From the NCBI GenBank assembly GCA_004022145.1, contig RCNU01000003.1: a DNA stretch of 64,000 nt; one strand, 5' to 3'. The position numbers were made by a program, and so were the translations under genes. The stretch is from Paecilomyces variotii (taxonomy: Eukaryota). This document shows positions 12,670-63,074 of the stretch, one piece after another (position 1 is the stretch's first letter; every line of letters starts with the position of its first letter). Below the pieces are notes generated by a model, which saw nothing but the letters and a program-made list of their open reading frames with translations, was not told where the DNA came from and did not search any database.

Positions 12670-15633
12670 TCACAGACTCATGGTCAACCACTCCCACTCC
12701 TGACTGCCACCTTGGCCTGCAGCAAGACTGTGATTCGCAGGGTTGGCTGCCGCTGGTTGCACTGCTGGGGCAAGCGGCACGACCTTGGACCTCGACGCTC
12801 CCTTGTCTTCACCATCACCCTCCTGCAATGAACTGGTCGAGCCCTTTTCCAGTCGTCGTTGACGTTTAGGGGCTACCTGGACGGATGCACGACTTTGACT
12901 GGCACCGTTCGAAGGGGCAGGCTTCGGGGGAGCCGCCGCGATGGGCACAACACCACCCTTGCCGGAGCCCTGGAAGCTAGTCGGAGTAGTTCCGGCTGTA
13001 GATCCACTGGAGCCTTGCATGGAAGGCGGAGATTCCGACGCTGTCGCGCTCTGCGGCTTGCCCGAGGTGGGCGTCGTGAGAGGAGCCTGGGCGACCGAGT
13101 TCTTCCTGCTGCCCTTCTTTGACGAGCGGGTTGAAGAGACTCCAACAGATAAGCTGTTACCGCTACCTCTGTTGCGCTTCTTAATCACATCCGTCTTCAG
13201 GGAAAGAGGTCGCACCACTCCGTGCAGCTTCAGGAAAAGACCACAGGCGTTGCAAAGAGGCTGGCCCTCCGGATTGCGACGCCATAGCGGTGTTGTCTGC
13301 GTGAAACAGTTGGTACAGGTAGTGGGCGTATTGCCCTGCTCGCCGTTCTTGGAGCCTCCTGGGCTGGCAGGCCGGGAAGGAGCAGTGCTGTTGAATCCGG
13401 ATTCTGGCGGCGTGTTGGGTGAGGTGAGGGACTGGTTGTTCATACTCTGATGAAGCAGCTGCGTAGTATTGGGGGTGGAGATGGTGCGGGCAATCTTCTG
13501 CCTGCGGGGATCCTGCTCACGGTTGCGGATTTCGCTCACGGATGCTGCAGATCCGTGAGTCCGGCCGAGACTGCCACCCTGGTTCCAGTCTCTCGACTGA
13601 TCCATCATGTCACCGCCAATCGTGATATGCTTCCTGTGCTGGCCGTTGAAAGTAGGCATCGAGTTGAACTGGCCAAAGTGAGCATCCCACTGGAGCCCCG
13701 TGTTCAGGTCGAGGGAAGCATCATCGACCGAGTTGAAATCCGTGTGCATGTTCATGTTGCGGTCAGAGAAAGCGTTGCCATCCTCATCCTCGTTGTCGGA
13801 GTCTGCACCGAAAGTGAACATATTGTCATTGCTGGTTAAGTTCAAGCCATGATGGGACGGACCGGCCGAGAAGTCACCACGACCCAGAACGCGAGACGGG
13901 TCGACATGCTGCTGCGGCATGGAGAAGCCTGGAGACGGGATGTTCGAGGGTGGACCGCTCAAGGAGTTAAACCCTTGGTCATTGTTGGTATTGAACATAT
14001 AGCGAGGCTGCACGGAGGACGAAAGGTTGGAGGATCGGTGAGAAGCATAGTTAGGGACCCGATGCTGAGTACGGGCATCTATGGAACTCTCAAAGTACAT
14101 AGAGTGCTCATTATCGAAGCCTGGCTGAGGAGTCGAGGCGGCCGACTGATAGCCGGAGGGAGGAGGAGAGTAAAAATCGGTAGAGTTGAGCGAAGAGCCC
14201 ATGGGGGTGTTGGCGTAGACATTAGCAAATGGTCCTCCGCTTGCCATCGGAGAGTCCGTGGGGGAGAAGGTGAAGTTGTGCTGGTACGGACCAGCCGAAG
14301 TCAAAATCGGGTCGTCATTCAAGTGGAAGGTATCCAGGTTGAAAGGCACACCCGGCGAAGTGTGGCTGTTGGTAGAGTACGCGGAGTGAGGCTGGTCGAG
14401 CTGGTAATCCGGCATTCCAGAGTCGAAGTCGGCGTCGACGGGGATCATCAGATTGGAGACCGGGGGGACCTGAGGAGAAGATTCGGCTGGACGCTTGCGA
14501 GTCTTGTCATTTGTGTTAGAATCCAGGATCCCCGTCCACTTCACGACGGGGTTGCCGCTCACCTTCCGCTCGTCGACACTGGTCTTGCGAATCCGTCGTT
14601 GGACGTAGCTGAATTCCCCGTTCTTGCGCTGGTCTTGAGGCGGGTGAGGTAACGACGCAGGAACCAGAGGCCCATGCGACGCGGTCGCCTGATCCTTTCG
14701 ACCCTTGATGGGGATGGCGGAGGCGACGGCGTTGTCGGATGTCGAGCCTTTGTCGGCCGACGGAGAAGCCGGGATGCCAGAGGGAGAGCCGATCGAGGAG
14801 GGGATTATGAAGTCGTCCAGGTTCATAGGATCCGCCTCCTCGTTGTTACTGTTGCCAGCGTTGGTCGCTGTGTGGTCGAGCGACTTCCGCAGCTGTGAGA
14901 TCCCGCCCGGTGTGGAGGTGTTGGCGGTGCTCCTGTGGTCAATGCTGTTTCTCTTCTGCTGGGCCAGTCTGATGAAACCCACCCAAGTCAGCCAACCCTC
15001 CTAGGCGGTTGCAAGGCAGCAGAAAGAGGAAGAGAGCACAGGAAAAAAGAGGGAAAGAGGGGAGAGACAAGAAGGGCCGGTGCGCACGACGAGCAGAAAG
15101 ATAAGAGATGATAGATAGCAGGCACAAGAACTAGCGTCCTGCACGTAGCTTTCGAGTGCGAATAATACATACCGAGCCTCACGTTCTTTACGCCTCAAAC
15201 TCATCGCCATCATCCGCCAGGTCAGATTCTCCATGCGCTCCTGGTTTGGAAGCTGGGTCTTGGTGCGCGTGTACAGCTTCCAGATTTGCGTGGCCAGAGG
15301 GTCTTTCTTCTGCATCTCATCCGGATCCTCGAGGCCCTCCCGGGGGTTGCCATGCTTCCAGTCGGGGAAGACGGAGTCGGGCAACCCCCCGCGGGCGAGA
15401 CTGGCAGCGATTGGGAACTCCAGCTTGTCGTTTGGTCGACTGAGGTCGGACGGCGTGAAGGAGGAATCGAGAGACAATTCCTGTGACGACGAAGGGGAAG
15501 AAGGAAGGAATTGGGAAGAAGAGAGATCGGCCATCCAGGTCGAGGTGCTTGGAGGGAAGAAAGACGAGGAAAAGGCGGCCGTGGTGCTGCAAATGGTCTC
15601 GGTTCCCCCACGCTCTCCATCCGCCCCGGACAT
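12670..15633 (-). CDS. areA: GATA-type nitrogen regulatory transcription factor AreA (NIT2 orthologue)
   Basis: ATG 15633 (MSG...). [11 protein letters not shown]...[12 protein letters not shown]-terminal domain, GATA finger [50 protein letters not shown], and the diagnostic C-terminus [10 protein letters not shown]. Introns 14969-15172 and 14503-14562. Confidence 0.97.
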
Positions 15634-18600
15634 GGCCAGGCGGGAATGTTGCGGTTGTGGTGTTGTCTGGTGTAGGAGAGAGAGGGAGAGAGAGACTTTG
15701 TAAAATAACAGGGAATCCAAAAGGGCGAGACCAGCGGAACAATAGTAAGTAGTAAAAGCAAGCAAGTAAGTAAGTAATAATACGGGATCAACACCGGCCG
15801 GGATGAGGAGGGGGAGAGCAATTCCTTTTTACCGTCCCGCCCAAAGGTGCTGACGCCTCTCCGCGCTGGAAAGTGAGAGAGGAGAGTAAGTAGTCAGTAG
15901 TGAGTGAGCCAGTCAAGCATAAGTAAATTAATTGGATTAAATTAAATTACCGGCTCTTGGTCTCTCTCACTCTCTGACTCTCTCTCTCACATTCACTACT
16001 CTCTTTCTTGTGCTTGTCTTCGGACGGTGCCCGCACTGGGGCGCCTCTTTTTTTTTTCGGCTTCCACGGTGGAGGGTAAGTTAAAAAACGGTGCGTACCG
16101 GTACGGAACAGACGCACTTGTCGGCCCTAGTCAGAGATTCTTTTTTAACGCCTTCGAGGCTAGAACGAGTGCGGACAAGAGCTCCACGCAGCCAGGGATC
16201 TCGAGTAGTAAAGCAAAGTGGTTAGTTAGTTCGTTCTAGGTGGCTTGGTTGGCTCTGTATTATTTCCACCGTGCCGGCTGGTCGGGCACAGATGCACGCT
16301 ATACTAGCAAGACTAGCGGGAGCAGGAGGAATTAAATTGTACGTAGTAATAAAAGTGAGTAAACAGGCTGGAAAAAAAGATGAAAGAAAGGAAGAACAAT
16401 TGACGACTCTTTTTTCTTTCCAAGCTGAAATAAAAGACTGGCCATGACGGCAGGATCGTAAGCGGCGCAAGTCGTCACCGGAGACAGGATGGACCACCGA
16501 AGGATCTCCCGGGTATGACGAAGGGGATCGCGGACATCAAAAGACTTGGTTGCTCGAGTTAGTGCGTCAACAGAACCAGACAGTAGTCGAGTCAAAGCGT
16601 CTGGTTGATTGAACTATACTCTACTCTACTCTACTCTACTAACTACTGGCTCTCTCCTGGTTCTGGAGATGTCAGAATAACCACACCCTATGATCCTATA
16701 GACCCCTCTTCCTGTCATACTGTAAGATCTCCGGACGAGCCCAGAACATCCCCGGCAGAGTTTCGATGGAGAGAGCGGGAGGTCTTCTCGAACATCGAGG
16801 GTGGTGGTTGCGCCAGGCTGATTCGGCCGTGGAAAAGGCAGCACTGCCCGTGGTCATCGATGCTCGGTGGGGAGAGACAGGCCCGTTAGTCGTTTCTGTC
16901 GTGCAGGCTAACTAGTGTGTTGGAGAAGGGGGGCCGGAGGGTTGAGTTGGGTTGACTCTCTCTGAAGTTAAGTTAATCCATCGTGAGAAGGCCAGCAATG
17001 CAATGCGATGCGATGCGTGCGAGTTGCCTTGGTGCGACAGCCTTGTTGTGCGGCCGATGGGGGTGGGATGTCGGGGAGTCAGGAAGTAATACAGCAGAAG
17101 AAGGCTGCATGGAACTTCCATGATAATTACATACCAGACTCTACTCTGGTCATCTTACATCCTGGAAATGAAACGGTATCGTTAATCAATTACCGTCTGG
17201 TTTCTCTCGCTCTCTCCGTTGCCGCCTGTCAGTGTTTCAAGGAATCTCTATGGCATGTTCATTAGAGAAGAGAAGATCAGTTATTGTATGTATATACATA
17301 CATACAATAATACTATATCTGAGGAGCAGAGATGCACTCGAATAATAGAGCAAGCCATCCTCAGCCCGTATCCATCATAATGGGTCCATCTCCCTGACTT
17401 TCCACCTCGTGGCAGCAAAAGTGGCGAAGGCACCGATCGGTTCGCCTCTCCGGGCGTTCGTTTGCCCGCCACAAGTCAGCATGTTTCGTATCGAACGCCC
17501 GTTCCACTCGGGCTGATTCCGTATACGGCTTGGGATCCTGTGCCTCTCTTATTCTTCTTCTCCTTCAGGATTTAACTATGTTGTGTTGATTACAGCAGAA
17601 ACCTGCCTTCCCATCGCTTCGTCTACCCGTCAACACATTCTGACAGGTACATTATCCTGTCCGCCTCCCGAGTCTGGAACTTGTTCCTTCATCTCCGGCC
17701 CCGCTGTCTTTTCCCCCACCATTATCTCGATAACAACGACAACAACCCTACTCCGTAGGTTCGTTCCTCAGCATTCCTCCCCTGCACGAGGTGGCTGCTG
17801 CTACTGCTGCGCCGTAGATTATTGCTCTTGCAGACGGTCTAGCAGCATGAAACAGCAGGCAATAATATAACGCCTGCAGCTCAGTGCCATCCCGAAGAAA
17901 AGCCTGGTCTACAAGAGGTATAAGGCCCGTTCATAGAGGCATCCACTGGTAGCCTAGCACTAGTTCCAACAAACTGCTGCTTCGCCTATATCTTTGCTCC
18001 CTGATACGTCCATCGAGTTATATACCATAACCATACTCTCCCGTCCTGCGGATCCGCAATATTACCACTAGATGCGCACTACCACTTAGCCGACGAGTAA
18101 TGTCCACTGCCGGAATAGAGTATCACTATTATTATTATTGTTGTTGTTTGTCTCTGTTGACGAGCGCTCTGACGAACAATGATGTCCATGCGTCTATAAT
18201 CATCACTGCACTGTTCTTTCTTTCTTTCAAGAAACACTGCGTTCCCAACTTGCTTTTTGCTTCCATCGAGTCGCATGAGATCATTACCCGGCCGACAGAC
18301 AAGCAGGGATGTGATATCACCCTCGTTGACTCGCCAGGAGCACGCGACGATCTTGCAGATGCGTCGATCGGACCCAACGTCGAAGTCACAACGGTCATTG
18401 TTCTGGACTGTAGGGCCACGAGCTCAACGACGGGGATATCGATTAAACTTCCGATGGCTATCGTCTATAGCATCTCGTTGGCCACACCACAACGCCAACT
18501 ACTTCATCTGAGTATATCCTACCAAGCATCTGGACCCTTTCTTTTCTCATGAAAAAGTATTAGCCCCCCCCAGTGACAGAGTCTCATCTACCATACGCAC

Positions 18601-37950: not shown

Positions 37951-40900
37951 TCAATCTCCGACACGGATCACAATCCCAACATCTACCGCTCTGGCCTCTC
38001 TGATGCTGCATGCGAGACATGTTCTTCCCACCCGGCTTATCACCGCGCTGGTCCCGACAGAAGCACACCATGCCCGTGCGAAAGCCTCCCGATCCTTCTC
38101 GCCCCGCGCATCCAAGATCCATGTCTCTGAAAAGGGTGACTCAGAGCTCTTATTCTTGATGTTGTTGTTTTTGTTTTTGTTGTTGCTATAACGCGACGGA
38201 AGCGCGGATGCGCCAATATCAGCAAGGGATCTTAGAGGGATATACCGATACGGATAAGACATGTGAAGCGGATGACCAGGAAGCCGGTCTGCTGTTGCAT
38301 GTTCAGATCTCCCACTAGTTGGCTTGGGCTGCTGGATGGTGGTCTTGTCCGGGGACGGGTTGCGGCTGTTGGTCGCGTATCCGTGTGGTGGCAGACATGC
38401 ATAAGAGGAGATAAAATGGGTATTGTAGGTCAATGGAAACGACAGGATGGTCGCTTTAGAAGCTGCCACGTCCATCAAGCGGAAGGCGACATATGCCTTT
38501 TTGGCGACCGTGATACCGTTCTGCATGGTCTCCTGTTCAGTTTTTCTAGATAGGAATAAGCCCTCGAGCGTTATCGCTGTCGTGTCCGTGACGGGTTGGT
38601 CCACAGGCAACGAGAATGTATCACTGGAAAGGGCACCGATTCCAAGAGGTGTAGATTGTAGCGCCAGCTGGGTTCCGTGTTGAATGCGCGGTTTCCGTGA
38701 CTTCTGCGGCACCTCTCTCGTCTCGACTTCGAGCCATGTATCTCCAAGAAGTTCTCCTGTGTGCACGTCGCGAGGGACAACATGGCTTTTTATCCAACCC
38801 ATGCAACCTGTAGTCTTGTCCAAGCAAGAGAGCACTCTTCCAACGACTGACATTTTGCTCCACCAGCTTCTATCATCATACACAAATCCACCGTACAGAT
38901 TTGCAAGTGGTCCAAGTGCCTTCATGGCTTTGGGGTCATTTTCAAGGACCGTCGCTATCAGAAAGTGACCGATTGCTTCGCCTGGAAGAACTAAACCAGA
39001 CAGCCACGTACGGGACATCCAACCGCCTACGTCACGTTCGTAGGAGCCGTCTTTGCCGACATTCTGAGGCCACTGCAGTAGGAGTAAACGCCGTGACTGG
39101 CTTTTGCGGTACATTTCGTTCTTGTCCAATGTCTGAACATACCTTTCCGGGAATGTGTTATGGACTGGTGATGCGTAGATGCTAGCAGTATCCGTGGAGC
39201 TGTCCCCAGATTTGAATTTGGAGCTCAGCTTCTCCTTCAACTCATCGGCTCCAGGCCATTCGATGCTCTGTGCAAAGATAAAAAGGCCCTGCAATTGCTT
39301 TTCTGGATGGCGAGGGACCAGAACATAGTCCCATGCCGACTCTGGATCAGCACTGGTGACCAGAGCGTCTCGGTGCTTATGACTACCGATTCTTGACAGG
39401 AGACCATGCCTACCAGCTGGTCTGTCCTGCGGAGGGACCTGCCCCTCTTCGTGGTGTGCTGGAAAATGCTGATAGTGTTGTACATCCACGTTATCGAAGA
39501 ATCGGCGCACCAGAATGAGATCCCAGTCCACCTTGCCAGAACGCAGTTTATCAAATCGCTCAATATCCTGTATGGTGAGTATGATATCCTTTGACTCCTC
39601 AAGTATACCCACTCGAACAACAGCATCAACGCGTATCAGTAATTCCGCTGCTAGCAACATCTGTAGTAAGAACCACTTTCTATCAAGACCACGCTCACTA
39701 AAAACCCTGTAATGATCAGGAGGGCAGTCTTTCGTACCCAGGAAATCTCCGTCCGGATGAGGCGGCATTTCCCAGAGAATTTGACCAATGCGCATACGCC
39801 ACTCCGTCAGACTGAAGTCGAACCAAGCTCCTTTGGTAGCCAGTACTTCGGTCAAGACTTCGATCTGGGTTTTCAGACTGTGACGATCCAAGTGTTCGAA
39901 TGTCCTCGTCGGGGGATAGAGAAATTTGGTAAATAGATTGTCGTACAGTGTGCGTGTAGATTGCCTGTCCAGCACAGTTTTCGCACTTCTTTCCACAAGG
40001 ATCTCGTGACGTATTCTACTCAATTCCTGAAGTCGATTGACCACGGATTCAATGGTGAAATCCCGAACCCCGATACGCTTCCATCCAGGAGGTCCTTCCA
40101 TGAGTAGCTTGTGACGGTCGTGGACTATATCGTTGTTGCATTCTGAGTAAGGACTGCTGAGATGCTCCATAATGTGGAATGCTTCAGAGACCGGCAAGGC
40201 AGCAAGTCTCTGAAAATCATTGCCTTTTGGCACAGGCGGTCCTTTGTATTTTTTATTATCGGCAACGGGCAGCTCGAGGAAATGACGAAACCCCACAGAA
40301 CCCGGTTCCTTGCCGTTCATGGATATCATGTTTGGAAATTCGAAGACGCCTACGTCAAAAGAAGCCCGTCTTATTACATCGCTGTTTCTCCGGTCAGTTT
40401 TCCACATCATGGTGTGCCCCTTCTTAGACCATTCATCTGGCACTGGGAGATGGGCATGTAATGTCGACAGCGTAAAGGACGGGTGCATCAGTGGTTGCGT
40501 ATCCCACAGATCTTGAATCATAGTGACATGCAAATCCCATGGGAAAAGCACCTGCGGGTACCAATAATCGTTCCTTCCCTTCTCAAGAATGAAGTGCGGC
40601 GCCCCAGAGAAGAAGTGTTTGAGATCCCACTTAGTGAGATGAGAAATGTTGTGAGGATGTTTGTGAGAATGCCCTGATTGATCACCCTTTGGCTTTTCCG
40701 TCGTGTTCAGGGCCATTTCCATAGCATCATGTATATTCGTAGGCTGCTTCGGCTCTCCCATGAATGAAGGTGGGCTGGATGACAGAGGTGACGGGGAAGC
40801 ATCACTATCGCGATGATTGTCAGATTCATCCTTTGGGATCTGGATATCCACGGCTAGAGGTGCATCATTGTGCTCCTGGACGCAGGTTAGTAAAGGTCCG

Positions 40901-41215
40901 TTCAGGAACCTCAGACGGCCTGGAATTTGCACCAGCAGCAAATGTATAGCTGCAGAAAGATATACGTACAGCATTTTCTTTTGCCTTCAGAGAATGTGAC
41001 GAGGTTGTCTCCGTGCTACCACCACTCCCACCAGTGCCACTGCGCAACCGGCTCAATAATGACATGCGTACCGGCGAGACGTCCTCAGGCGACCTCGACC
41101 CTTCCATGTGTGAAAGCCGCTTCATGGAGCCCGGTCTCCCTGTCTCATTTTCCGATGAATCAGACGCAGGAGGCCGTATTATTGGCAACTTATTCACTCC
41201 TTGGAACAGAGGCAT
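37951..41215 (-). CDS. Large (~1050 aa) fungal protein of unknown function
   Basis: Exon 1 41215-40970 (MPLFQG...), intron 40876-40969 (GTACGT..CTAAC..CAG), then a ~2.9-kb open exon ending ARAWCASVG...RTCLACSIREA. No domain recognised. Confidence 0.85.
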
Positions 41216-54444: not shown

Positions 54445-55795
54445 CTAGTCCGTGAGCGTAAACAGCTCATGAATTGCGGGCCCGGATGTAAAAGGCTCAC
54501 TCTGGCTACTCAGTTTACCCTCAACGGATCCAATCCAACGGGTGTACAAAGTAGGCACCTCTGCGGTCACCGTCTTCGTGGTGACATTCACAGACAACCT
54601 CCCACCTTCCGCATCCCCCAGATCAAAGTCCATCGAGAAACCATCTGGAGTATCACCCTTGCGAGGCGGATATCGCGTATCCGGACCCATAGTACTAACA
54701 CTGAACTGATCAGAGCTATTAGATGCGCAGAGAATCCTGCCGTTCAGAGAGACATAGCTGTTGACGTAGTGCTCATGAGAAGGAGTAATGACCGAAAACC
54801 AAACCAAGGAATAGTTCCCTACACGTCCGTGGCCCCAGTACCAGGTTCCGACGAGAGTTTCGAAAGGCGCATCGGCCCAGTTCTTTGAATAGTATAGTTA
54901 GCTTCAACGGACCGGTATGCATGCAGGTGCAGGGAGAGATTATAGAGCTCACTTGGTCGTGGTATGCGGATCCTTCAAATTGCAGGTCAGTACCCTTGAT
55001 GTTGAAGTTGACCGTTCCTTTTGAATCTGGAATAGCATTCGTCCAACCGATATGAGGGGCGATCTGCAGGGATTGTTTCTCCCTATCATTTACGGGACCA
55101 GAGGGATAATGCGCTGGTGCGATCTTCAAGTAGGAGAAGAATGAATTTATAGTCAGTACTCGAAAATTCAAATGTGCCCCGTGTTGACGCAGAAAACAAT
55201 CAAATATAGAAGCCAAGGGAATGGAAGCAGTGCAACGTACCGAATCCAACTCAAGTGTCCCGCTAATATCCATCTCATTCGACTCGATTGTCACGGTATA
55301 TTTCTGCATCTTTGGATCTCCATCCCATCTGAAACCGGTCGACTCCCAGCTCCCACTAGATCCATCTCCAATGGTGGTGATTGTCGCAAAACTGGCAGTC
55401 GTGTACCCCGTGTACACAGTCCCATTGGGAAAGGTCGCCCAGACGTATGCTACCGTGACAGAGTCGCTAGGCAATATGAACGGGAACGCAAGTGAAGTAG
55501 AGGTGAAAAAGATGATGGTGAGGGAATTTAAGAGATCTGTCGAGACGGCGTCGAAATACCACCACTGGGTGACAGTGCTGTTGATGAAATCGAGCTTGGG
55601 ACTATCGACGCCTGTGAATAGACCCGTATCATTGCCAGTCGAGGAAGAGAATTGAGCGTGGCTGATTCCATTCTGGACCGTTCCTGGATAGACCTTGACA
55701 GAAGTCGCTCCCTGGTTGCTTCCAGGAACAAAGACGCGTGAAAACGCTATTTCTATGAGGGAAAAAACAGTGACCAGGAGTCGGAAACAGTTCAT
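54445..55795 (-). CDS. Secreted CrtC/AsqI-PenF/Diels-Alderase-like double beta-barrel protein
   Basis: Hydrophobic signal-like N-terminus and motifs QWWYFDAVS, APAHYP, IGWTNAIPD, AYHDQNW and WYWGHGRVG.YSLVWF. Introns 55124-55240 and 54883-54952. Confidence 0.75.
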
Positions 55796-56797
55796 ATTGA
55801 TGAGTGAGTGCAGTTTGTTCTGCTAGAACGTGTTTAACCTAGGATTGGTGTAAGGAGAAATAGAGGGTGTGGTTCAGAGATGAGGATGAAGGTGTCTCTT
55901 TCGTTTCTCCTGCAATGAGCTTTATCTGATCAATGCTTGAGTACGGAGGCTATAGAAGGGTTAGTACACCAATAAGCAGAAAATTTTTCACAAAAAAACA
56001 AAAACAAAACAAAAGGATGCGCGTCTATAGAGCGTACCTTAGTGTGCATAAGTGTCTTATGTTCGTCCTCAATTTGCCGGATGTTCCCTACTTGCAAAGA
56101 TGCCAACAAGCAGAAGCAAACAACAATGAGAAAAGGGCGAGCAAAGAGGTACGCATGCATTTGCAGAGATAGCCAGTTACCATGGGTACCATTGGGGCTC
56201 CTGATCTTCGATGATTCCCACGCGAAACACTCGAGCCGTCCTCGGAGTTGTGTCACGCCCTTCCCTATTGCAGAACAAAGAGATAATACACCGCAAAAGC
56301 GGTTATAAGCAAACAGTCAAAATGTAGTCCTCATCCTCAACTCAAAAATCGCTCACGAATGTATGTAGATGAAGATAAGCACTGCATAAAATTCCTGATA
56401 AAGGGCTCGTGAAGCCGCTCTAAACAACACAAGAGTATAGAAAGCAGAGCCGATCGGCGAAGACCAACCCTTAACAACAGCAACTCCATGTTGGCAAAAC
56501 CACAACTATGATTCCTTGGATACCCCTGCAAAGTGTAAGTTATACCCAATATTGATTTGAACGCCCTGCATTCTATGTGGTTCTTTGTTGGCATGGACCC
56601 GACGTACCCGTGAAACCTGGGACTAACGTAGGCAAGATACCCCGATATAGACGCTATATTGTCTGGCTACCTATGCAGGTGTATTACTCGGGATATACAG
56701 TACATAAAACAAGACGACGAGAAAATCCGAAGGTACCAATGATTGAAATGAGTTGATATAACAAATATCGCGCACAAAGTTCGAGTACATCAAAAGG

Positions 56798-58520
56798 TCA
56801 AGACTTCATTTGCACATCACTATTAACCTCCTTAGAGGCTCTGAAAACTTCCACTCCTTCTATCTCGTCCCTAGGACCAACGCCTAGTCGCGTTGCTTCC
56901 TCAGTAGTGAACGTCCCATAGTAATCAGACTCATCGACCTCGCCGAGTCCCATAGGCGGCCATATCTTACTTATAGCCACGTACAAAACGGCACTGATAA
57001 CGAACCCGAGCGGGAAGGCAAGGTCATAGAGTCTCGTGCATCCAACTGGAACAGTGATCTTTGGATTAACTGCATGTACGAATCCCGGCAGCAGCGGAAT
57101 GAACCCGACCACCCAGGCAGCAAATGAACGCCAATTGATACCGTAGAGGTAGTAATATATACCCTGGGGTCGAGGGTCGTAAAGGTCACTCAGTTTGATC
57201 CGTCGAGACCTGATGATCCAGTAATCCGTAATCATGATCCCACACATGGGACCAAGGAATACAGAATAGGCAGATAAAACCTGGATGAATGTCGCAGCGC
57301 TCGCGAGCAGCTCCCAAGGACACAGGGCGATTGAGATGATGAGACCAATATATGCACCACGGCGGATGTTGATAAATTTGGGAAACAGGGCGCTCATGTC
57401 CATTCCGGTCGAGAATGCATTATCAACCGTGTTGATGGCTAGCTGGCAGATGACAAGGCCCACTCCTGCAAAGAAGGCTCCTGCTCGAGATTTTGCATTG
57501 TAATCGGTATCTAGCCACTGGAGGGCGATTTCTGGTGGGTTCCAGAGGGCTTCACCGTAGATTCCCATCGTGGCAGACGATGCCAGGCAACCAAAAAGCG
57601 GCATGACGGTACCAAACAGTATAATAGAAAACCATTGACCGAACACCTGATCGCCTGGCCTTCGAGCGAAGCGAGAATAATCTGCTTGGTTGGTCAGGCC
57701 GACCGCAATACTCCCGATTACCGATGTGATACCACTGACGATGGACCATCCAAGCTCAGTGGACCCGTTTAGAGTCGAAGGCCGAGAGAGGAGCGGACCA
57801 GCCCCGTTGGCAGCAGAAAGGGCCCAAATCATTATTCCCAGAAGGGTAAAAAAAGATACGGCGTTCATAGCCGCGAGTAATCTCTTAGTCTTTTCTGGCG
57901 GTATGTACATGATCGGGATACTGATGACGTTATAGAGGATCCATCCTATAAATTGCTTGGTGGTCAAATGGCTTGACTCGGGAAAGACGTTATCCAAGTG
58001 TTGGAATCCCGAGAATATCGATGCCAGGATGGCCGTCACGCATAATCCTCCCGTCCAGCTCTGAACAGCAAGCCAGACAAGAGAGAGCAGTATACGCTGC
58101 AAAAGCATGAGATATGAGCCGTAAATGCCCCATACTGATATGCGTTAGTATGTGGGCAGTATGATAAACCCGAACACCATCTGAAAACATACCATTCCTT
58201 GAAAACACAGGAAATCCAATGTGCCAGTCTGCCCCAACATAGCCGTTAAATACAGCGACCAAGGATATGATGATCTTTCCGACAATGATCGCAACCATAG
58301 TTTGCCAAACCGACAAGCCGGCGGCAACTAGAGAAGCGCCGACCTGCCAATTGCTTAGGCAGAGATTGTTGATAGCCCAGAACGATATATATGCATATTT
58401 CCCCCAAGTTCGCCGGTATGGCGGTAAAGGACGGATATCATCGTTGATCCAGACGGAAGATGTCGTCTCCTTCGTGGTCGGGACAGCCAGCACGTCGACG
58501 AGTCGATACCAGGAGAACAT
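56798..58520 (-). CDS. NCS1 permease (second paralogue)
   Basis: WINDDIRPLP..RRTW, HIGFPVFSR|VWGIYG (intron 58135-58192), NQADYSRFA, INIRRGAY, CPWELL, VFLGPM. Confidence 0.92.
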
Positions 58521-58682
58521 TGCTTATGTAGTAGTCGTAAGATCGTAGAACTAGTAGGTCCAGTTCTGAGAGACGGAAGGAGTAGGCATGCCAAATGTTT
58601 CGAAAGGCTCGTTGTGTTGAAACCGCAATAGCATACTCAAGGGCAGTCGGCATGCGCAAGAGGTAGGGCGCCATAGGCAAGG

Positions 58683-59903
58683 TATATAAGTTCTACAATG
58701 TCAATGGGCGGTCGTCTAACAGCCACTGGGGCAAGATAGGCAAGACTAAAATCCTGATAAGAAATTCCGAGGACAATGCTTATCAGATATGGCTTCTGCA
58801 GAGCCCACTAGGGGCTGCTCGACAGGGGTTCTCTGCGGAATCGATATTCAGCATCCAGAAATATATTAGGTCCTTTAACTATCATTCCGGATGGTCCTTG
58901 CTAGCAAGTAATAGAAGATAAGAAAGAGTGAGCTTAAATGAGTCGTTGCGATCGAACGCCTCTTTGTCCGGCTACGAGTATGCGCTACCCCAGGCTCCCC
59001 CTCACGGCTCAGGGCACCCAAATAGAGCCGAGAAGTGCACTGGTATATCCGTGCGCCTGATTGCCATCTTTCGCCTGGATTGGTCTCGGCCAGAAAACGG
59101 GATTGCGGCATGAGAACCGATGCTATGAGCACTGGCGCGGCGTCTATCATGCAGCTAGACAAGCGTTCTCGAGCGTCTTAAGGGAACTATTAGTTGTTTC
59201 CAATGAGAAATCACCGCGATAGGAATGCCTGTTCATCTCACGCTTGGTAAAAGGCCAGACCCACTGCTGTGTATGCTAACTTGCTAAGTATCAAGACGCT
59301 AAGGTTAACGTTCAGTTTCTTCATCGCATGCCTCTGCGTGGACCGGACGCCAGTGCTTGCTATCGTGTATAAGATATCGCAACTTGCAAGACCAGAGGTG
59401 ACAAAAGGGATTTACCTAATCGAAGAATAATAAACCATCTGTCACGGAGGTTGGGCTTCGTCGAAGAAATGGGGGCAAGAGGAATCTCCGTGTACGTCTG
59501 TCGGTGTTGTTCGGAGAATCGGCCACGTGATTGGTGGACGTTGTTGACTCCGGACGACTTCCGCGAGACTTTCTGACATCCAGTAGTCAAGCGTTCTAGT
59601 TGGAAGTTCCTGGATCATCTTATCTTTCGGCCATGTCGCTTGGCCGATCAAACGGAGAGGGGTCTTTAGTCTACACCCCCCAATTCCACAGTGCAGACAA
59701 GTCCGTCTTTTGCCATACGAGTCCGAACGGGGTAACGCTCCACTTAGTTGTAGCGATGTCGTTATCGGATCATGATGCGAGATTGGAAATCGTGCGGGAT
59801 GCCTCAGAGACGCAAATCTCCGAAAGTCCACTGCGGAGTGTATAAATGCTCTGCAACCTTCTCACCTCCAAGATTGAACATCACGACTGCTTCCTATCGA
59901 TAG
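58683..59903. promoter_or_regulatory. Bidirectional promoter with GATA sites between the NCS1 permease and hydantoinase::DUF917
   Basis: HGATAR or its reverse complement at 58734, 58755, 58779, 58879, 58916, 59619 and 59894. TATA-like elements at ~58683 (permease side) and 59841 (hydantoinase side). Confidence 0.55.
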
Positions 59904-59936
59904 CCTGTATCGTGAATCAGAGAAAGTGGAAGAAAC

Positions 59937-62900
59937 ATGGCTACGCCGCAGGCCTTCTATCGCATAGGTGTTGATGTTGGAGGCACAAACACAGACTCGG
60001 TGATTCTCGATACCCGTGCCTCAAATGCGCCTAATCGCGGGGTTATCGCGCTGAAGAAGACTCCGACCACGAGTCCCAACGTCACAGATGGAATAGAAAC
60101 CGCAGTGAGAAGCGTGTTGGAGGAGTCAAAGGTCCCAAGGGATCAGGTTGCATGTCTTACTATCGGAACTACCCACTTCATCAACGCGATCGTCGAGCAT
60201 GATGTACGCAGACTGTCCAAGGTCGCCATCATTAGGCTATCAAAATCTTTCACTAAGGAAGTTCCGCCGTTTTCGGACTTTCCGCCAGCCTTGAAAAAGA
60301 TTATGAATGGTCATTACGGCTTCGTGGACGGCGGTTTGCATATCGACGGGTCGCAGGAAGCACCGATAGTTGAAGAGCAGGTTGTACAGCAGTGTGCCGT
60401 TATTAAGGAAAAGGGCATCGGCGCTGTTGTCATATCCGGAGTCTTTTCACCCATCGACGAACACTTCCATCAAGAAGACCAGGTTCGCAAGATTGTGCTC
60501 CGCGAGCTTCCCGGAGTCGATGTTGTGTGCTCCTCAGAGGTCTCCCAGATTGGCTTTCTGGAGCGGGAGAACGCTTCAATTCTAAATGCATCGATCCTCA
60601 AGTTCGCCAGACGAACAATTCGCGGTTTCCGTGCAGCTATGAAGCGGTTGGATCTCAAATGTGCCCTCTATCTGACCCAGAACGATGGCACCCTGATCGA
60701 CGCTCCCGCTGCTGCTCGACTGCCTATTCGGACATTCTCCTCTGGACCAACAAACTCCATGCGAGGAGCTGCCTATTTAGGCCTTCAAGGTTCAGACGAT
60801 AAGTCGGAGCGAACCGCAACCATTGTGGTAGACATAGGAGGCACAACAACTGATGTAGGGGTGCTCTTGCCCTCCGGATTTCCACGTCAAGCGTCAGCCT
60901 ACGTTACAGTAGCAGGCGTGAAGATAAACTTTGGAATGCCGCATATCGAGTCGATTGGCCTGGGGGGTGGTTCTATCGTACGTATCGATGGAGAGCAGGT
61001 CAGCGTCGGACCGGACTCAGTGGGACATTACCTCGACACTAAGGCGACCGTGTTTGGAGGCGATACCTTGACTGCCACAGACATTGCAGTCGCAGCGGGA
61101 GAGAAGATCGGGAACCCAGAACTAGTCAGCCACCTATCAAAGTCGACAGTTGCTACGGCACAAGCGAAAATGAAGCAAATGCTCGAAGGCGTAATTGATC
61201 TTATGAAGACATCACCTGCTCCCCTGCCTGTTCTTCTTGTGGGAGGTGGCTCTGTTATCTCGCCCACTGAATTGGAAGGCGTATCCAAGGTGGTCTGCCC
61301 TCCGTTCCATTCAGTAGCAAACGCCGTTGGCGCGGCTATATCGAAGGTCGGGGGTACTGTCGACTCGATTCAAAACACTGCAGAACAGTCAGCCAAAGAA
61401 ATTGTGGAGCAGGCGAAAGCAACCGCCATCGAACGTGCTGTTGCTGCTGGCGCTCTCAGAGAAACTGTATACGTTGCGGAAGTCGATGCCATACCCCTGC
61501 AGTATGTAGCCAATCAAATGCGCGTTATTGCTCGTGCAGTTGGTGAACTGTCACCGGAGAGCTTACCGCTAGCAAATGGTGTTTCAGCAGAAGAGGAAGA
61601 GGATGGAGAGGAAGAGATCTACAACGAGGGCGAGAAAACCAAATCTTCCCAGGAAGAAGGTGAGATGCCCACTGTGGACATCGATTCGTATCGGCCAAAG
61701 GTAGTCAAAAACCCGGAGACCGGCAAACACGAGTGGATAATCTCTGAGACGGACGTTGCTTGGCTGGCAGATGGGTGTTATGTTCTTGGATGTGCTGGTG
61801 GAGGTTCTCCGTTCGGCGAATACATCCGGATCAGAGACCAGATCCGTCAAGGCTATACTATCCGTGTGATCGACGCGACTGCATTGGAGGATGATGCTGT
61901 TGTTTACTGTGAGTTAACCGTCATTCCCTACCATCAATGCGATTTTACCAGTTCTTGCTAATACTAGTTAGGGGGTGGCCATATGGGATCACCTGCAGTT
62001 TCCGTTGAGCGGTTGGCCAACGACGAGACAGAGCAAGCTGTCCTTGAGTTGATGGAATATCTTGGCCACAAGAAGATCGACGCTTTTATGGATCTTGAGA
62101 TCGGTGGCGCGAACGGATTGCAAGCGTTGGCACTTAGTTCTACAAAGAACCATGGTTGCCCGGTTGTTGATGCAGACTTCATGGGTATGTTCTGTCCTCG
62201 TCTCAACATATTTTGTGATTCAAAACGACGTGGACCTAAGCTTACAATGATTAATCTAGGCCGCGCTTATCCAACATACTGGCAAACCACTATCTGCATC
62301 TATGAGAAGAATCCGCTGGTGCCATGCGCACTCGCTTCCGGGGATGGAAAGACTATTCTTATGACAAAGACCACTAACGATGAGATCGTTGATCGCGCTC
62401 TTCGGGCTGCATGTGCAGAAATGGGCTCCCGAGTCGGGAAGGCCGCTAAACCGACGAGCAAACATAGCATCATCAACTATAGCGTCCTGAACACCGTCTC
62501 CCTCGCATGGCGCATCGGTCGCACCATTGCCCGCGCAGCAGCCACTAATACCGTCAGTACTGTCGCGGAGCAGATGATCGATGAATGTGGCGGCCCTGAA
62601 GCGGCCAAGATCCTGTTCCGGGGCAAGATCGTCTCTGTCGAGAGGCGTCTTTTCAAGGGCCATTCTTACGGCGAGATAACCATCCAGCAAGTGCAGAGCG
62701 GTGAACAAGAAGACGTTTCGACATCGACTCCAGCCGTAGCAACTGGAGGTGTTCTCAAAATACCGTTCAAGAATGAAAACATTTACGCCAAACATGTCGC
62801 AGATGATGGCACAGAGACGTACGTGGCTACTGTCCCGGATCTGATTTCGGTGCTGGACACCCAGTCTGGACGAGCCCTCGGGGTGCCTGAGTTCCGGTAC

Positions 62901-63074
62901 GGAGTGATGGTCACCGTACTGGGCATTACTTGCTCGCCTAGGTGGACAGACACTCCTAAGGGGCTAGAGATCGGTGGGCCCGGTGCCTTTGGATATCACG
63001 ATATCCCGTATAAGCCTCTGGGGAAGTACGTTGAACCGAAAAGTGTTGTTCTGGAATACGCGGAGAAGGAGTAA
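59937..63074 (+). CDS. Hydantoinase/oxoprolinase (A-type, ATP-binding) fused to a C-terminal DUF917 domain
   Basis: RIGVDVGGTNTD, IGTTHFINA, LERENASILNA, QNDGT, SSGPTNSMRGA, VVDIGGTTTDVG, SIGLGGGS and ANAVGAA. After an acidic linker: LGCAGGGSP, MGSP, EIGGANG, DADFMGRAYP, FKNEN and VPDLI. Introns 61909-61971 and 62185-62259 keep one frame. Confidence 0.9.

Follow-up and report, generated by a model that had tools for sequence, protein, structure and literature searches.

In this study we describe a pair of divergently transcribed genes at positions 56798 to 63074 of a 64,000-nucleotide stretch of DNA (the window) from contig RCNU01000003.1 of the filamentous fungus Paecilomyces variotii (assembly GCA_004022145.1). 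One gene encodes a permease of the NCS1 family, and the other encodes a protein of about 1000 residues in which a hydantoinase A (HyuA)-type ATPase is fused to a DUF917 module. We favor, with moderate confidence, the explanation that they form a two-gene unit for uptake and breakdown, in which a Fur-type NCS1 importer is coupled to an ATP-dependent enzyme that opens cyclic amides or ureides and in which DUF917 replaces the hydantoinase B (HyuB) partner of the classical enzymes. An earlier note on this DNA had reported the divergent permease gene and the HyuA::DUF917 fusion, and this observation is confirmed together with its coordinates. Its overall interpretation, a nitrogen-regulated unit importing and opening a cyclic ureide or thiohydantoin, is partly supported.

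The fusion gene lies on the plus strand and is composed of three exons. Exon 1 (59937-61908, with the ATG at 59937) encodes the HyuA module, a linker and the first ~60 residues of DUF917. Because HyuA and the start of DUF917 are found within one exon, the fusion does not depend on splicing and is not a splicing artifact. Exon 2 (61972-62184) encodes a further part of the N-terminal domain of DUF917 (PF06032), and exon 3 (62260-63074, stop codon included) encodes the rest of that domain and the C-terminal domain. Both intron 1 (61909-61971, 63 nt) and intron 2 (62185-62259, 75 nt) have GT..AG borders. The joint across the first (61908>61972) was found in RNA-library contigs of runs X4 and X7, and that across the second (62183/4>62259/60) in a contig of run X4 from which the intron is absent; intron 2 is itself open in frame and is part of a read-through open reading frame (ORF) at 61968-63074. 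These exact joints confirm the gene model on transcripts. A single contig of run X2 that spans both genes, the spacer between them and the introns was rejected as evidence of transcription, since its introns are unspliced and it therefore looks like genomic DNA inside an RNA library. The spliced model gives a product of 999 aa, equal in length to P0059, a database representative at the 90% cluster level named "hypothetical protein [Paecilomyces variotii]", from which it first differs at residue 155 (I/V) and which it matches at 99.7% identity over 590 aa in the HyuA part.

Four Pfam domains were found in this product, and its C-terminal part is DUF917, as the earlier note had proposed. Hydant_A_N (PF05378) covers aa 9-190 (E 4e-28, 98.6 bits against a cut-off of 25.2) and Hydantoinase_A (PF01968) aa 210-388 (E 2e-32, 113.1 bits against 22.9). 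They are followed by S-Me-THD_N (PF06032), which starts at aa 605 in exon 1, runs into the next ORF and scores 53.5 and 106.4 bits on the two ORF pieces, and by S-Me-THD_C (PF20906; E 4e-66, 222.5 bits), so that the order within DUF917 is N then C and both of its domains are above threshold. From an alignment of 47 fusions, AlphaFold2 (AF2) modeled the full-length protein with a predicted local distance difference test (pLDDT) of 87.2 and a predicted template modeling score (pTM) of 0.86, showing an acidic, disordered, low-confidence linker at aa 545-576 between the two modules.

Prokaryotic loci support the idea that DUF917 takes the place of HyuB. Stand-alone DUF917 proteins fall into 1082 representative clusters at E ≤ 0.001, 390 at 1e-10 and 61 at 1e-30, and a search of one-genome-per-species contigs with a five-protein alignment (A2) confirmed at least 585 prokaryotic DUF917 loci, the best 80 of which were analyzed. 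By tblastn, 75 out of the 80 loci contain an HyuA-type gene, with 40-46% identity to the fungal module over ~535 aa, and one contains HyuB. The HyuA and DUF917 genes are at most 150 nt apart in 65 of the 74 loci with long matches to both, and in 70 of these 74 they are on the same strand, HyuA being first in 40 and DUF917 in 30. Pfam annotation of the ORFs in 12 out of the 80 loci confirmed the tblastn calls and gave an HyuA gene of ~515 aa with Hydant_A_N and Hydantoinase_A only. In addition, a metagenome scan with the alignment of fusions yielded 80 loci, all of which carry HyuA and 68 of which also carry DUF917, many of the others being short contigs. The linkage of HyuA and DUF917 without HyuB is near-obligate in prokaryotes, and because of it the fungal protein looks like a fused form of the pair, with HyuA ahead of DUF917. 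In 27 out of the 80 loci (including L010/L011, L044 and L075), one or two HyuA genes are accompanied by a tandem of two or three diverged DUF917 genes, which suggests hetero-oligomers or several substrates per ATPase.

Structure prediction points in the same direction. When the HyuA (515 aa) and DUF917 (387 aa) proteins of one such locus (L004) were co-folded, the interface score ipSAE was 0.85 (0.84, 0.86 and 0.85 in the individual runs), the best control being 0.23; contact agreement between the runs was at least 82%, and the partner had a pLDDT of at least 88. The complex-score mark is one that 51 out of 78 solved complexes and 2 out of 108 mismatched pairs reach. Since no HyuA-DUF917 complex was found among the solved structures searched, the prediction is unlikely to be the recall of a solved complex. 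The bacterial HyuA and DUF917 proteins are thus predicted to bind each other, with an interface that on the DUF917 side involves residues 66-79, 135, 157-159, 178-186, 246-248, 282 and 315-322 and on the HyuA side residues 90-101, 190-194 and 493-504. For the fungal protein itself, the absence of a hydantoinase-B domain that the earlier note had remarked on holds: Pfam detected no Hydantoinase_B (PF02538) in the fusion, and tblastn with the HyuB part of a fungal protein detected no match in the 64-kb window. The gene linkage and the predicted binding uphold the idea that DUF917 stands in HyuB's place.

The HyuA-type module, an ATPase of the ASKHA kind, occupies aa 1 to ~540 and lies in exon 1. 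Its ATP motifs are intact: in the alignment, all 47 out of 47 fusions have D13, G15, T17, T19, D20, D299, G301, G302 and G436-G438 unchanged, residues that we assign to the phosphate-1, phosphate-2 and adenosine motifs. In a Foldseek search the N-terminal part of the model matched N-methylhydantoinase (9h03, E 3e-29), as well as acetone carboxylase beta, acetophenone carboxylase (Apc) and caprolactamase alpha (6yra, E 1.5e-18), and its sequence matches in the PDB were 7hk5, 6yra, 5l9w and 5svb. The classical HyuA+HyuB enzymes (9h03/7hk5 and 6yra) have the same Hydant_A_N and Hydantoinase_A domains, the same ASKHA ATP motifs and the same fold, whereas their second module is HyuB and that of the fusion is DUF917. 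They also have a full-length HyuA, whereas the HyuA of the fusion and of the prokaryotic pair is short (~515-540 aa); a classical full-length HyuA has ~690 aa and a C-terminal Hydant_A_C domain (PF19278). Pfam listed this last domain for HyuA+HyuB proteins but neither for the fusion nor for P0059. On the NCBIfam caprolactamase alpha model, whose cut-off is 1000, the fusion scores 99.9 bits. By analogy with these enzymes, the N-terminal module may work through ATP-driven activation of a ring amide, with ring opening in the second module.

The permease gene lies head to head with the fusion gene, on the minus strand. Its exon 1 (58193-58520, ATG at 58520-58518) matches positions 1-79 of the PF02133 model (E 4e-19), and its exon 2 (56798-58134, including the stop codon at 56798-56800) matches positions 80-440 (E 4e-80). 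The predicted intron between them (58135-58192, 58 nt, GTATGT...ACTAAC...CAG) splices in frame without a stop, for a product of 554 aa in this splice model. No RNA contig crosses this intron; contigs of run X4 cover 57127-57992 within exon 2, so that parts of both genes are covered by contigs of this metatranscriptome. The score on TIGR00800, 301.3 bits against a cut-off of 353.1, was obtained with exon 2 only, that is, with 444 of the 554 residues. In Aspergillus nidulans, FurA transports allantoin, FurD uracil, and FurE uracil, allantoin and uric acid. The hydantoin permease Mhp1 was the only solved relative (E 9e-19), and the window permease has PF02133 over its full length in common with it and with the fungal Fur-type transporters FurA, FurD and FurE. 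An N-terminal N-D-D-I-R-P fits, with isoleucine for leucine, the N-x-D-L-x-P "LID" motif of the Fur subfamily described in the available part of a study of these transporters (10.1101/588368), and an N-x-D-[L/I]-x-P motif is common to the window permease and this subfamily. On the basis of this motif and of PF02133, the permease is best read as a putative Fur-type NCS1 symporter. A second NCS1 permease gene lies at 630-2255 of the window on the minus strand (ORF 432-1838, PF02133 E 4e-71); the two permeases are 30.6% identical, and the window permease is ~23% identical to the NCS1 proteins linked to bacterial HyuA-DUF917.

The association of the permease with the enzyme recurs in other fungi. 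The metagenome loci include eight with intron-split fused genes (L081-L088), of which L084 is too short to judge; the other seven carry fungal hallmark domains in the Pfam scan and are informative. An NCS1 gene is divergently upstream of the fusion in five of the seven (L081, L082, L086, L087 and L088), with 43-63% identity of the enzymes to the window fusion and 30-60% identity of the permeases to the window permease; those of L081, L082, L086 and L088 (37-60%) are closer to it than its own in-window paralog is. NCS1 is also merged after the fusion in a Helicocarpus gene model (P0014), a second arrangement of the same parts. No other neighbor recurs across the fungal loci, where Zn2Cys6/Fungal_trans genes are downstream in L081 and L083. 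The related contigs L085 and L086 both have genes for a mitochondrial carrier, a Pyr_redox_2 protein and a fungal rhodopsin-domain protein downstream of the fusion; upstream, NCS1 is kept in L086 only, its place in L085 being taken by genes for a methyltransferase and a sugar transporter, a contrast which indicates that the NCS1 neighbor can be lost or moved between close relatives.

In bacteria the transporter is usually of another kind. The binding protein of a Dpp/Opp-type ABC importer is the usual neighbor of the pair, in 32 out of the 80 prokaryotic genome loci and in 13 out of the 80 metagenome loci, all of them bacterial-type, whereas NCS1 was found in 3 out of the 80 genome loci (L040, L043 and L065), counted with a bacterial NCS1 query, and in 11 out of the 72 bacterial-type metagenome loci. 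It directly adjoins the HyuA-DUF917 pair in L095, L122, L129, L140, L149, L156 and L043. With the fungal NCS1 protein as tblastn query, nothing was found in the 80 genome loci at E ≤ 1e-6. The statement in the earlier note on bacterial operons with HyuA, DUF917 and an NCS1-type permease therefore stands for the first two and has to be weakened for the third, which is present in a minority and is less common than ABC importers. Given that the bacterial NCS1 proteins are only ~23% identical to the fungal one, the pair appears to have acquired this transporter class independently, on more than one occasion.

An alternative that we consider unlikely is that the enzyme is a housekeeping or metabolite-repair lactamase, clearing by means of ATP a lactam that forms spontaneously inside the cell, and that the permease is functionally unconnected with it. 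The enzyme is indeed very highly conserved: the fusion relatives listed are 57-100% identical over the 657-aa exon-1 query and extend across fungal classes into Basidiomycota, the named ones belonging to Eurotiomycetes, Leotiomycetes, Sordariomycetes, Dothideomycetes, Saitoella, Gloeophyllum and Jaapia. All 120 near-length relatives listed carry the HyuA and DUF917 families, and those of ~990-1036 aa carry all four domains. Such conservation would suit a repair function, as would the two informative loci without an NCS1 neighbor (L083 and L085) and the variability of all other neighbors. Against it stand the divergent permease gene in five out of seven loci, which in four of them is closer to the window permease than the paralog is, the second arrangement with NCS1, the shared GATA-rich promoter and the importers that flank the bacterial pairs.

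Slightly less probable still is that the HyuA module drives an ATP-dependent synthesis, such as a carboxylation, a cyclization or the formation of an amidine, in the manner of the acetone and acetophenone carboxylases. Subunits of both of these enzymes rank among the nearest matches of the module, by fold as well as by sequence, and nothing in the data fixes the direction of the reaction. However, the bacterial context looks catabolic: besides the importers, genes for Asp/Glu/hydantoin racemases occur in 5 and AsnC/Lrp regulators in 9 out of the 80 prokaryotic loci. In addition, the HyuB-type query, which represents the family of the carboxylase partner subunits, matched a single one of the 80 loci, no other carboxylase subunit was seen in the Pfam scan of 12 of them, and the sole characterized relatives of DUF917 are hydrolytic, according to their NCBIfam names.

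The two genes are separated by a spacer of 1416 bp (58521-59936, unstranded) with a TATAAA at 59841 and two CGG-N(6-11)-CCG sites. HGATAR is the consensus of the nitrogen regulator AreA. The 1.4-kb shared promoter with several GATA sites described in the earlier note was recovered, with 12 HGATAR sites where 4.8 ± 2.1 are expected; 2 out of 1000 dinucleotide-preserving shuffles reach this number, which is at the 98th percentile of same-size windows slid across the 64 kb. From this enrichment, the promoter may be under AreA/GATA nitrogen control. The head-to-head arrangement could instead be a chance adjacency, with GATA sites that mirror the local base composition, and two observations speak for this: the bare GATA core shows a modest excess (19 against 12.0 ± 3.2 expected, 84th percentile), and fungal synteny decays fast, as the variable other neighbors show. 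We nevertheless hold chance to be improbable, given the HGATAR count and the recurrence of the divergent NCS1 gene in fungal contigs whose enzymes have diverged so far. The window also contains an areA-like nitrogen regulator gene (12670-15828, minus strand) with a GATA zinc finger (E 5e-17), AreA_N and GATA_AreA, the ORFs of which are ~43 kb from the spacer.

The last alternative concerns DUF917 itself. Its link with thiohydantoin desulfurases, which the earlier note brought up, exists as a database name (Pfam S-Me-THD; NCBIfam NF058529 and NF058532), and the chemistry of these desulfurases is given here after such names and general background, no paper on their enzymology having been found in the literature searched. 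The two-domain fold family and a core of residues, namely a GGGG loop, D724, R730-A-x-P733, R777, N900-E901 and P921-D922, are common to HyuA-linked DUF917 and the desulfurases, which, judging by their NCBIfam names, act on a hydantoin-type ring. A single solved structure of DUF917 was found, CV_3147 of Chromobacterium violaceum (2o3i); it shares this fold as well (Foldseek with the C-terminal part, E 6e-17, TM 0.80 normalized to the target) and was the sole PDB match of the DUF917 profile (E 5.6e-30), the single-sequence search of the PDB with the DUF917 C part giving no match. CV_3147 differs in that it stands alone, was deposited as a "hypothetical protein" and is ~20% identical to the fungal domain.

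Beyond the fold, the two groups part. The fusion scores 40.6 bits on the thiohydantoin desulfurase model (NF058529, cut-off 440) and 50.3 on the S-methyl thiohydantoin desulfurase model (NF058532, cut-off 450), and the bacterial HyuA-linked DUF917 proteins, at 94-134 bits, are also below the cut-offs. Two of the five bacterial genomes searched (G001 and G004) do contain true desulfurases (600 and 602 bits), at loci separate from the pair (L166 and L167). These are ert clusters, with thiourocanate hydratase (1046-1063 bits), ErtD (780-794), ErtE (599-601) and a HAL-like lyase beside the desulfurase and no HyuA match within ~8 kb. A quick maximum-likelihood tree of 68 DUF917 domains sets the two desulfurases apart: the branch between them and the other 66 domains, all HyuA-linked or fused, has full support and a length of 5.84 + 1.71. 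Of the 47 fused domains, 43 form one fully supported clade. Furthermore, HyuA-linked and fused DUF917 have little or no variation at E670, E700, N705, D726, K851 and Y942, all of which are replaced in the desulfurases; three of these polar residues, E670, K851 and Y942 of the fungal fusion, correspond to E74, K246 and Y319 in the predicted interface of the L004 pair. Thus, although Pfam calls the domain "S-Me-THD-like", no named DUF917 models other than the desulfurase equivalogs match it, the two groups have core residues in common and fungi do produce ergothioneine, it is very improbable that the DUF917 module is an (S-methyl-)thiohydantoin desulfurase in a pair that degrades ergothioneine-derived (thio)hydantoins with release of H2S or methanethiol, and we have rejected this reading, and with it the thiohydantoin part of the earlier interpretation, because of the scores, the HyuA-free ert clusters, the tree and the residue differences, to which may be added that the Pfam scan, which covered 20 out of the 42 window ORFs of at least 150 aa, revealed no homolog of thiourocanate hydratase, ErtD or ErtE and that a desulfurase would have no need of an ATPase.

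We return to the two-gene unit for uptake and ring opening. The Fur-type symporter would import a small heterocyclic or cyclic-amide nitrogen compound. The HyuA-type module would then bind ATP and, in analogy to 5-oxoprolinase, N-methylhydantoinase and caprolactamase, activate a carbonyl of the ring, probably through O-phosphorylation. DUF917 would dock on the HyuA module to form a shared active site, bind the ring and complete the addition/elimination and the opening, and would in this way fill the role of HyuB in the classical enzymes; the chemistry would thus be phosphorylation followed by DUF917-assisted hydrolysis. As to the substrate, we infer a hydantoin- or dihydropyrimidine-like ureide, or else a lactam such as a cyclic dipeptide. 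The link with NCS1 and the hydantoin-acting relatives favor a small cyclic ureide. A preprint on cyclodipeptide oxidases (10.1101/2023.09.25.559410) reports that genes for DUF917, hydantoin racemase and AroM are enriched near these oxidases, and this company, together with the peptide-type ABC importers and the racemases of the bacterial loci, favors lactams such as cyclic dipeptides.

Several points weigh against this explanation, besides the fungal loci without NCS1 and the modest count of the bare GATA core. The HyuA module is shorter than classical HyuA, and its Pfam match reaches only from position 1 to 173 of the 291 in the model; since it is short and has no Hydant_A_C, its chemistry may differ from that of the classical enzymes. 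The role of DUF917 as the hydrolytic partner is proposed by analogy. The preprint on cyclodipeptide oxidases describes DUF917 proteins as uncharacterized and only "suggested" to be hydantoinases (10.1101/2023.09.25.559410), and no enzymology of HyuA-linked DUF917 was found in the literature searched. The complex test was also passed by 7 out of 44 blind neighboring gene pairs, its score being a measure of model confidence. Because ABC importers are so much more frequent than NCS1 beside the bacterial pairs, substrates may differ between lineages and may resemble peptides more than ureides. Finally, enrichment of GATA sites is in itself no evidence of regulation, and the RNA-library data, being assembled contigs, cannot show expression level or co-regulation.

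The HyuA::DUF917 unit also occurs in other settings. A search for longer relatives found HyuA and DUF917 merged with other domains in 29 out of 58 matches, among them a Pelomyxa protein and the Helicocarpus model. Three proteins of 2499-2715 aa (P0023, P0024 and P0029), which are single genes or merged models, have the unit at their N-terminus, with NB-ARC and TPR added in P0023 and P0024, in an NLR-like architecture, and ankyrin repeats and an OTU protease domain added in P0029. In P0027 (1345 aa), DUF917, HyuA and NCS1 follow each other in that order, as a triple fusion or as an operon read through by the gene caller. Among near homologs of the DUF917 module, the best 120 of 413 matches were almost all exon-sized fragments of fungal genes from metagenomes. 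In a transcriptome study of Clonostachys rosea (PMC5999205), the six genes that were induced against each of the two prey fungi include those for an NCS1 "uracil permease" and for a "hydantoinase/oxoprolinase"; the latter, a possible DUF917 fusion, was left out of the evidence. In the vicinity of the pair, an ORF at 54773-55822 on the minus strand, just past the 3' end of the permease gene, matches the Diels-Alderase N-terminal domain (PF24137, E 2e-17). Elsewhere in the window, a 1011-aa open frame at 37951-40986, also on the minus strand, had no Pfam match at E ≤ 0.001.

In a wider sense, we tentatively suggest, with somewhat less assurance than for the two-gene unit, that HyuA and DUF917 constitute a third, undescribed class of ATP-dependent enzymes that open ring amides, with DUF917 as the catalytic partner, which is spread across hundreds of prokaryotic operons and which in fungi has become one chain, accompanied by a Fur-type NCS1 importer and opening an unrecognized nitrogen source from the environment, for example a 5-substituted hydantoin, a dihydropyrimidine-like ureide or a cyclic dipeptide. 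What would be new is a kind of ATP-dependent hydantoinase or lactamase whose second module belongs to a different fold family. Annotations everywhere call the family "hydantoinase/oxoprolinase" or "DUF917", and no characterization of it was found in the literature searched. The two named activities of DUF917 are both those of ATP-independent desulfurases, whereas the HyuA-linked branch, to which the prokaryotic loci counted above belong, is much larger. The fungal fusion is a single-chain, easily expressed form of this two-component enzyme, and the adjoining permease narrows its substrate to small NCS1-type solutes. Once the substrate is identified, fungal nitrogen metabolism would gain a further catabolic route, and it would become clear how an ASKHA ATPase can pair with a second module other than HyuB.

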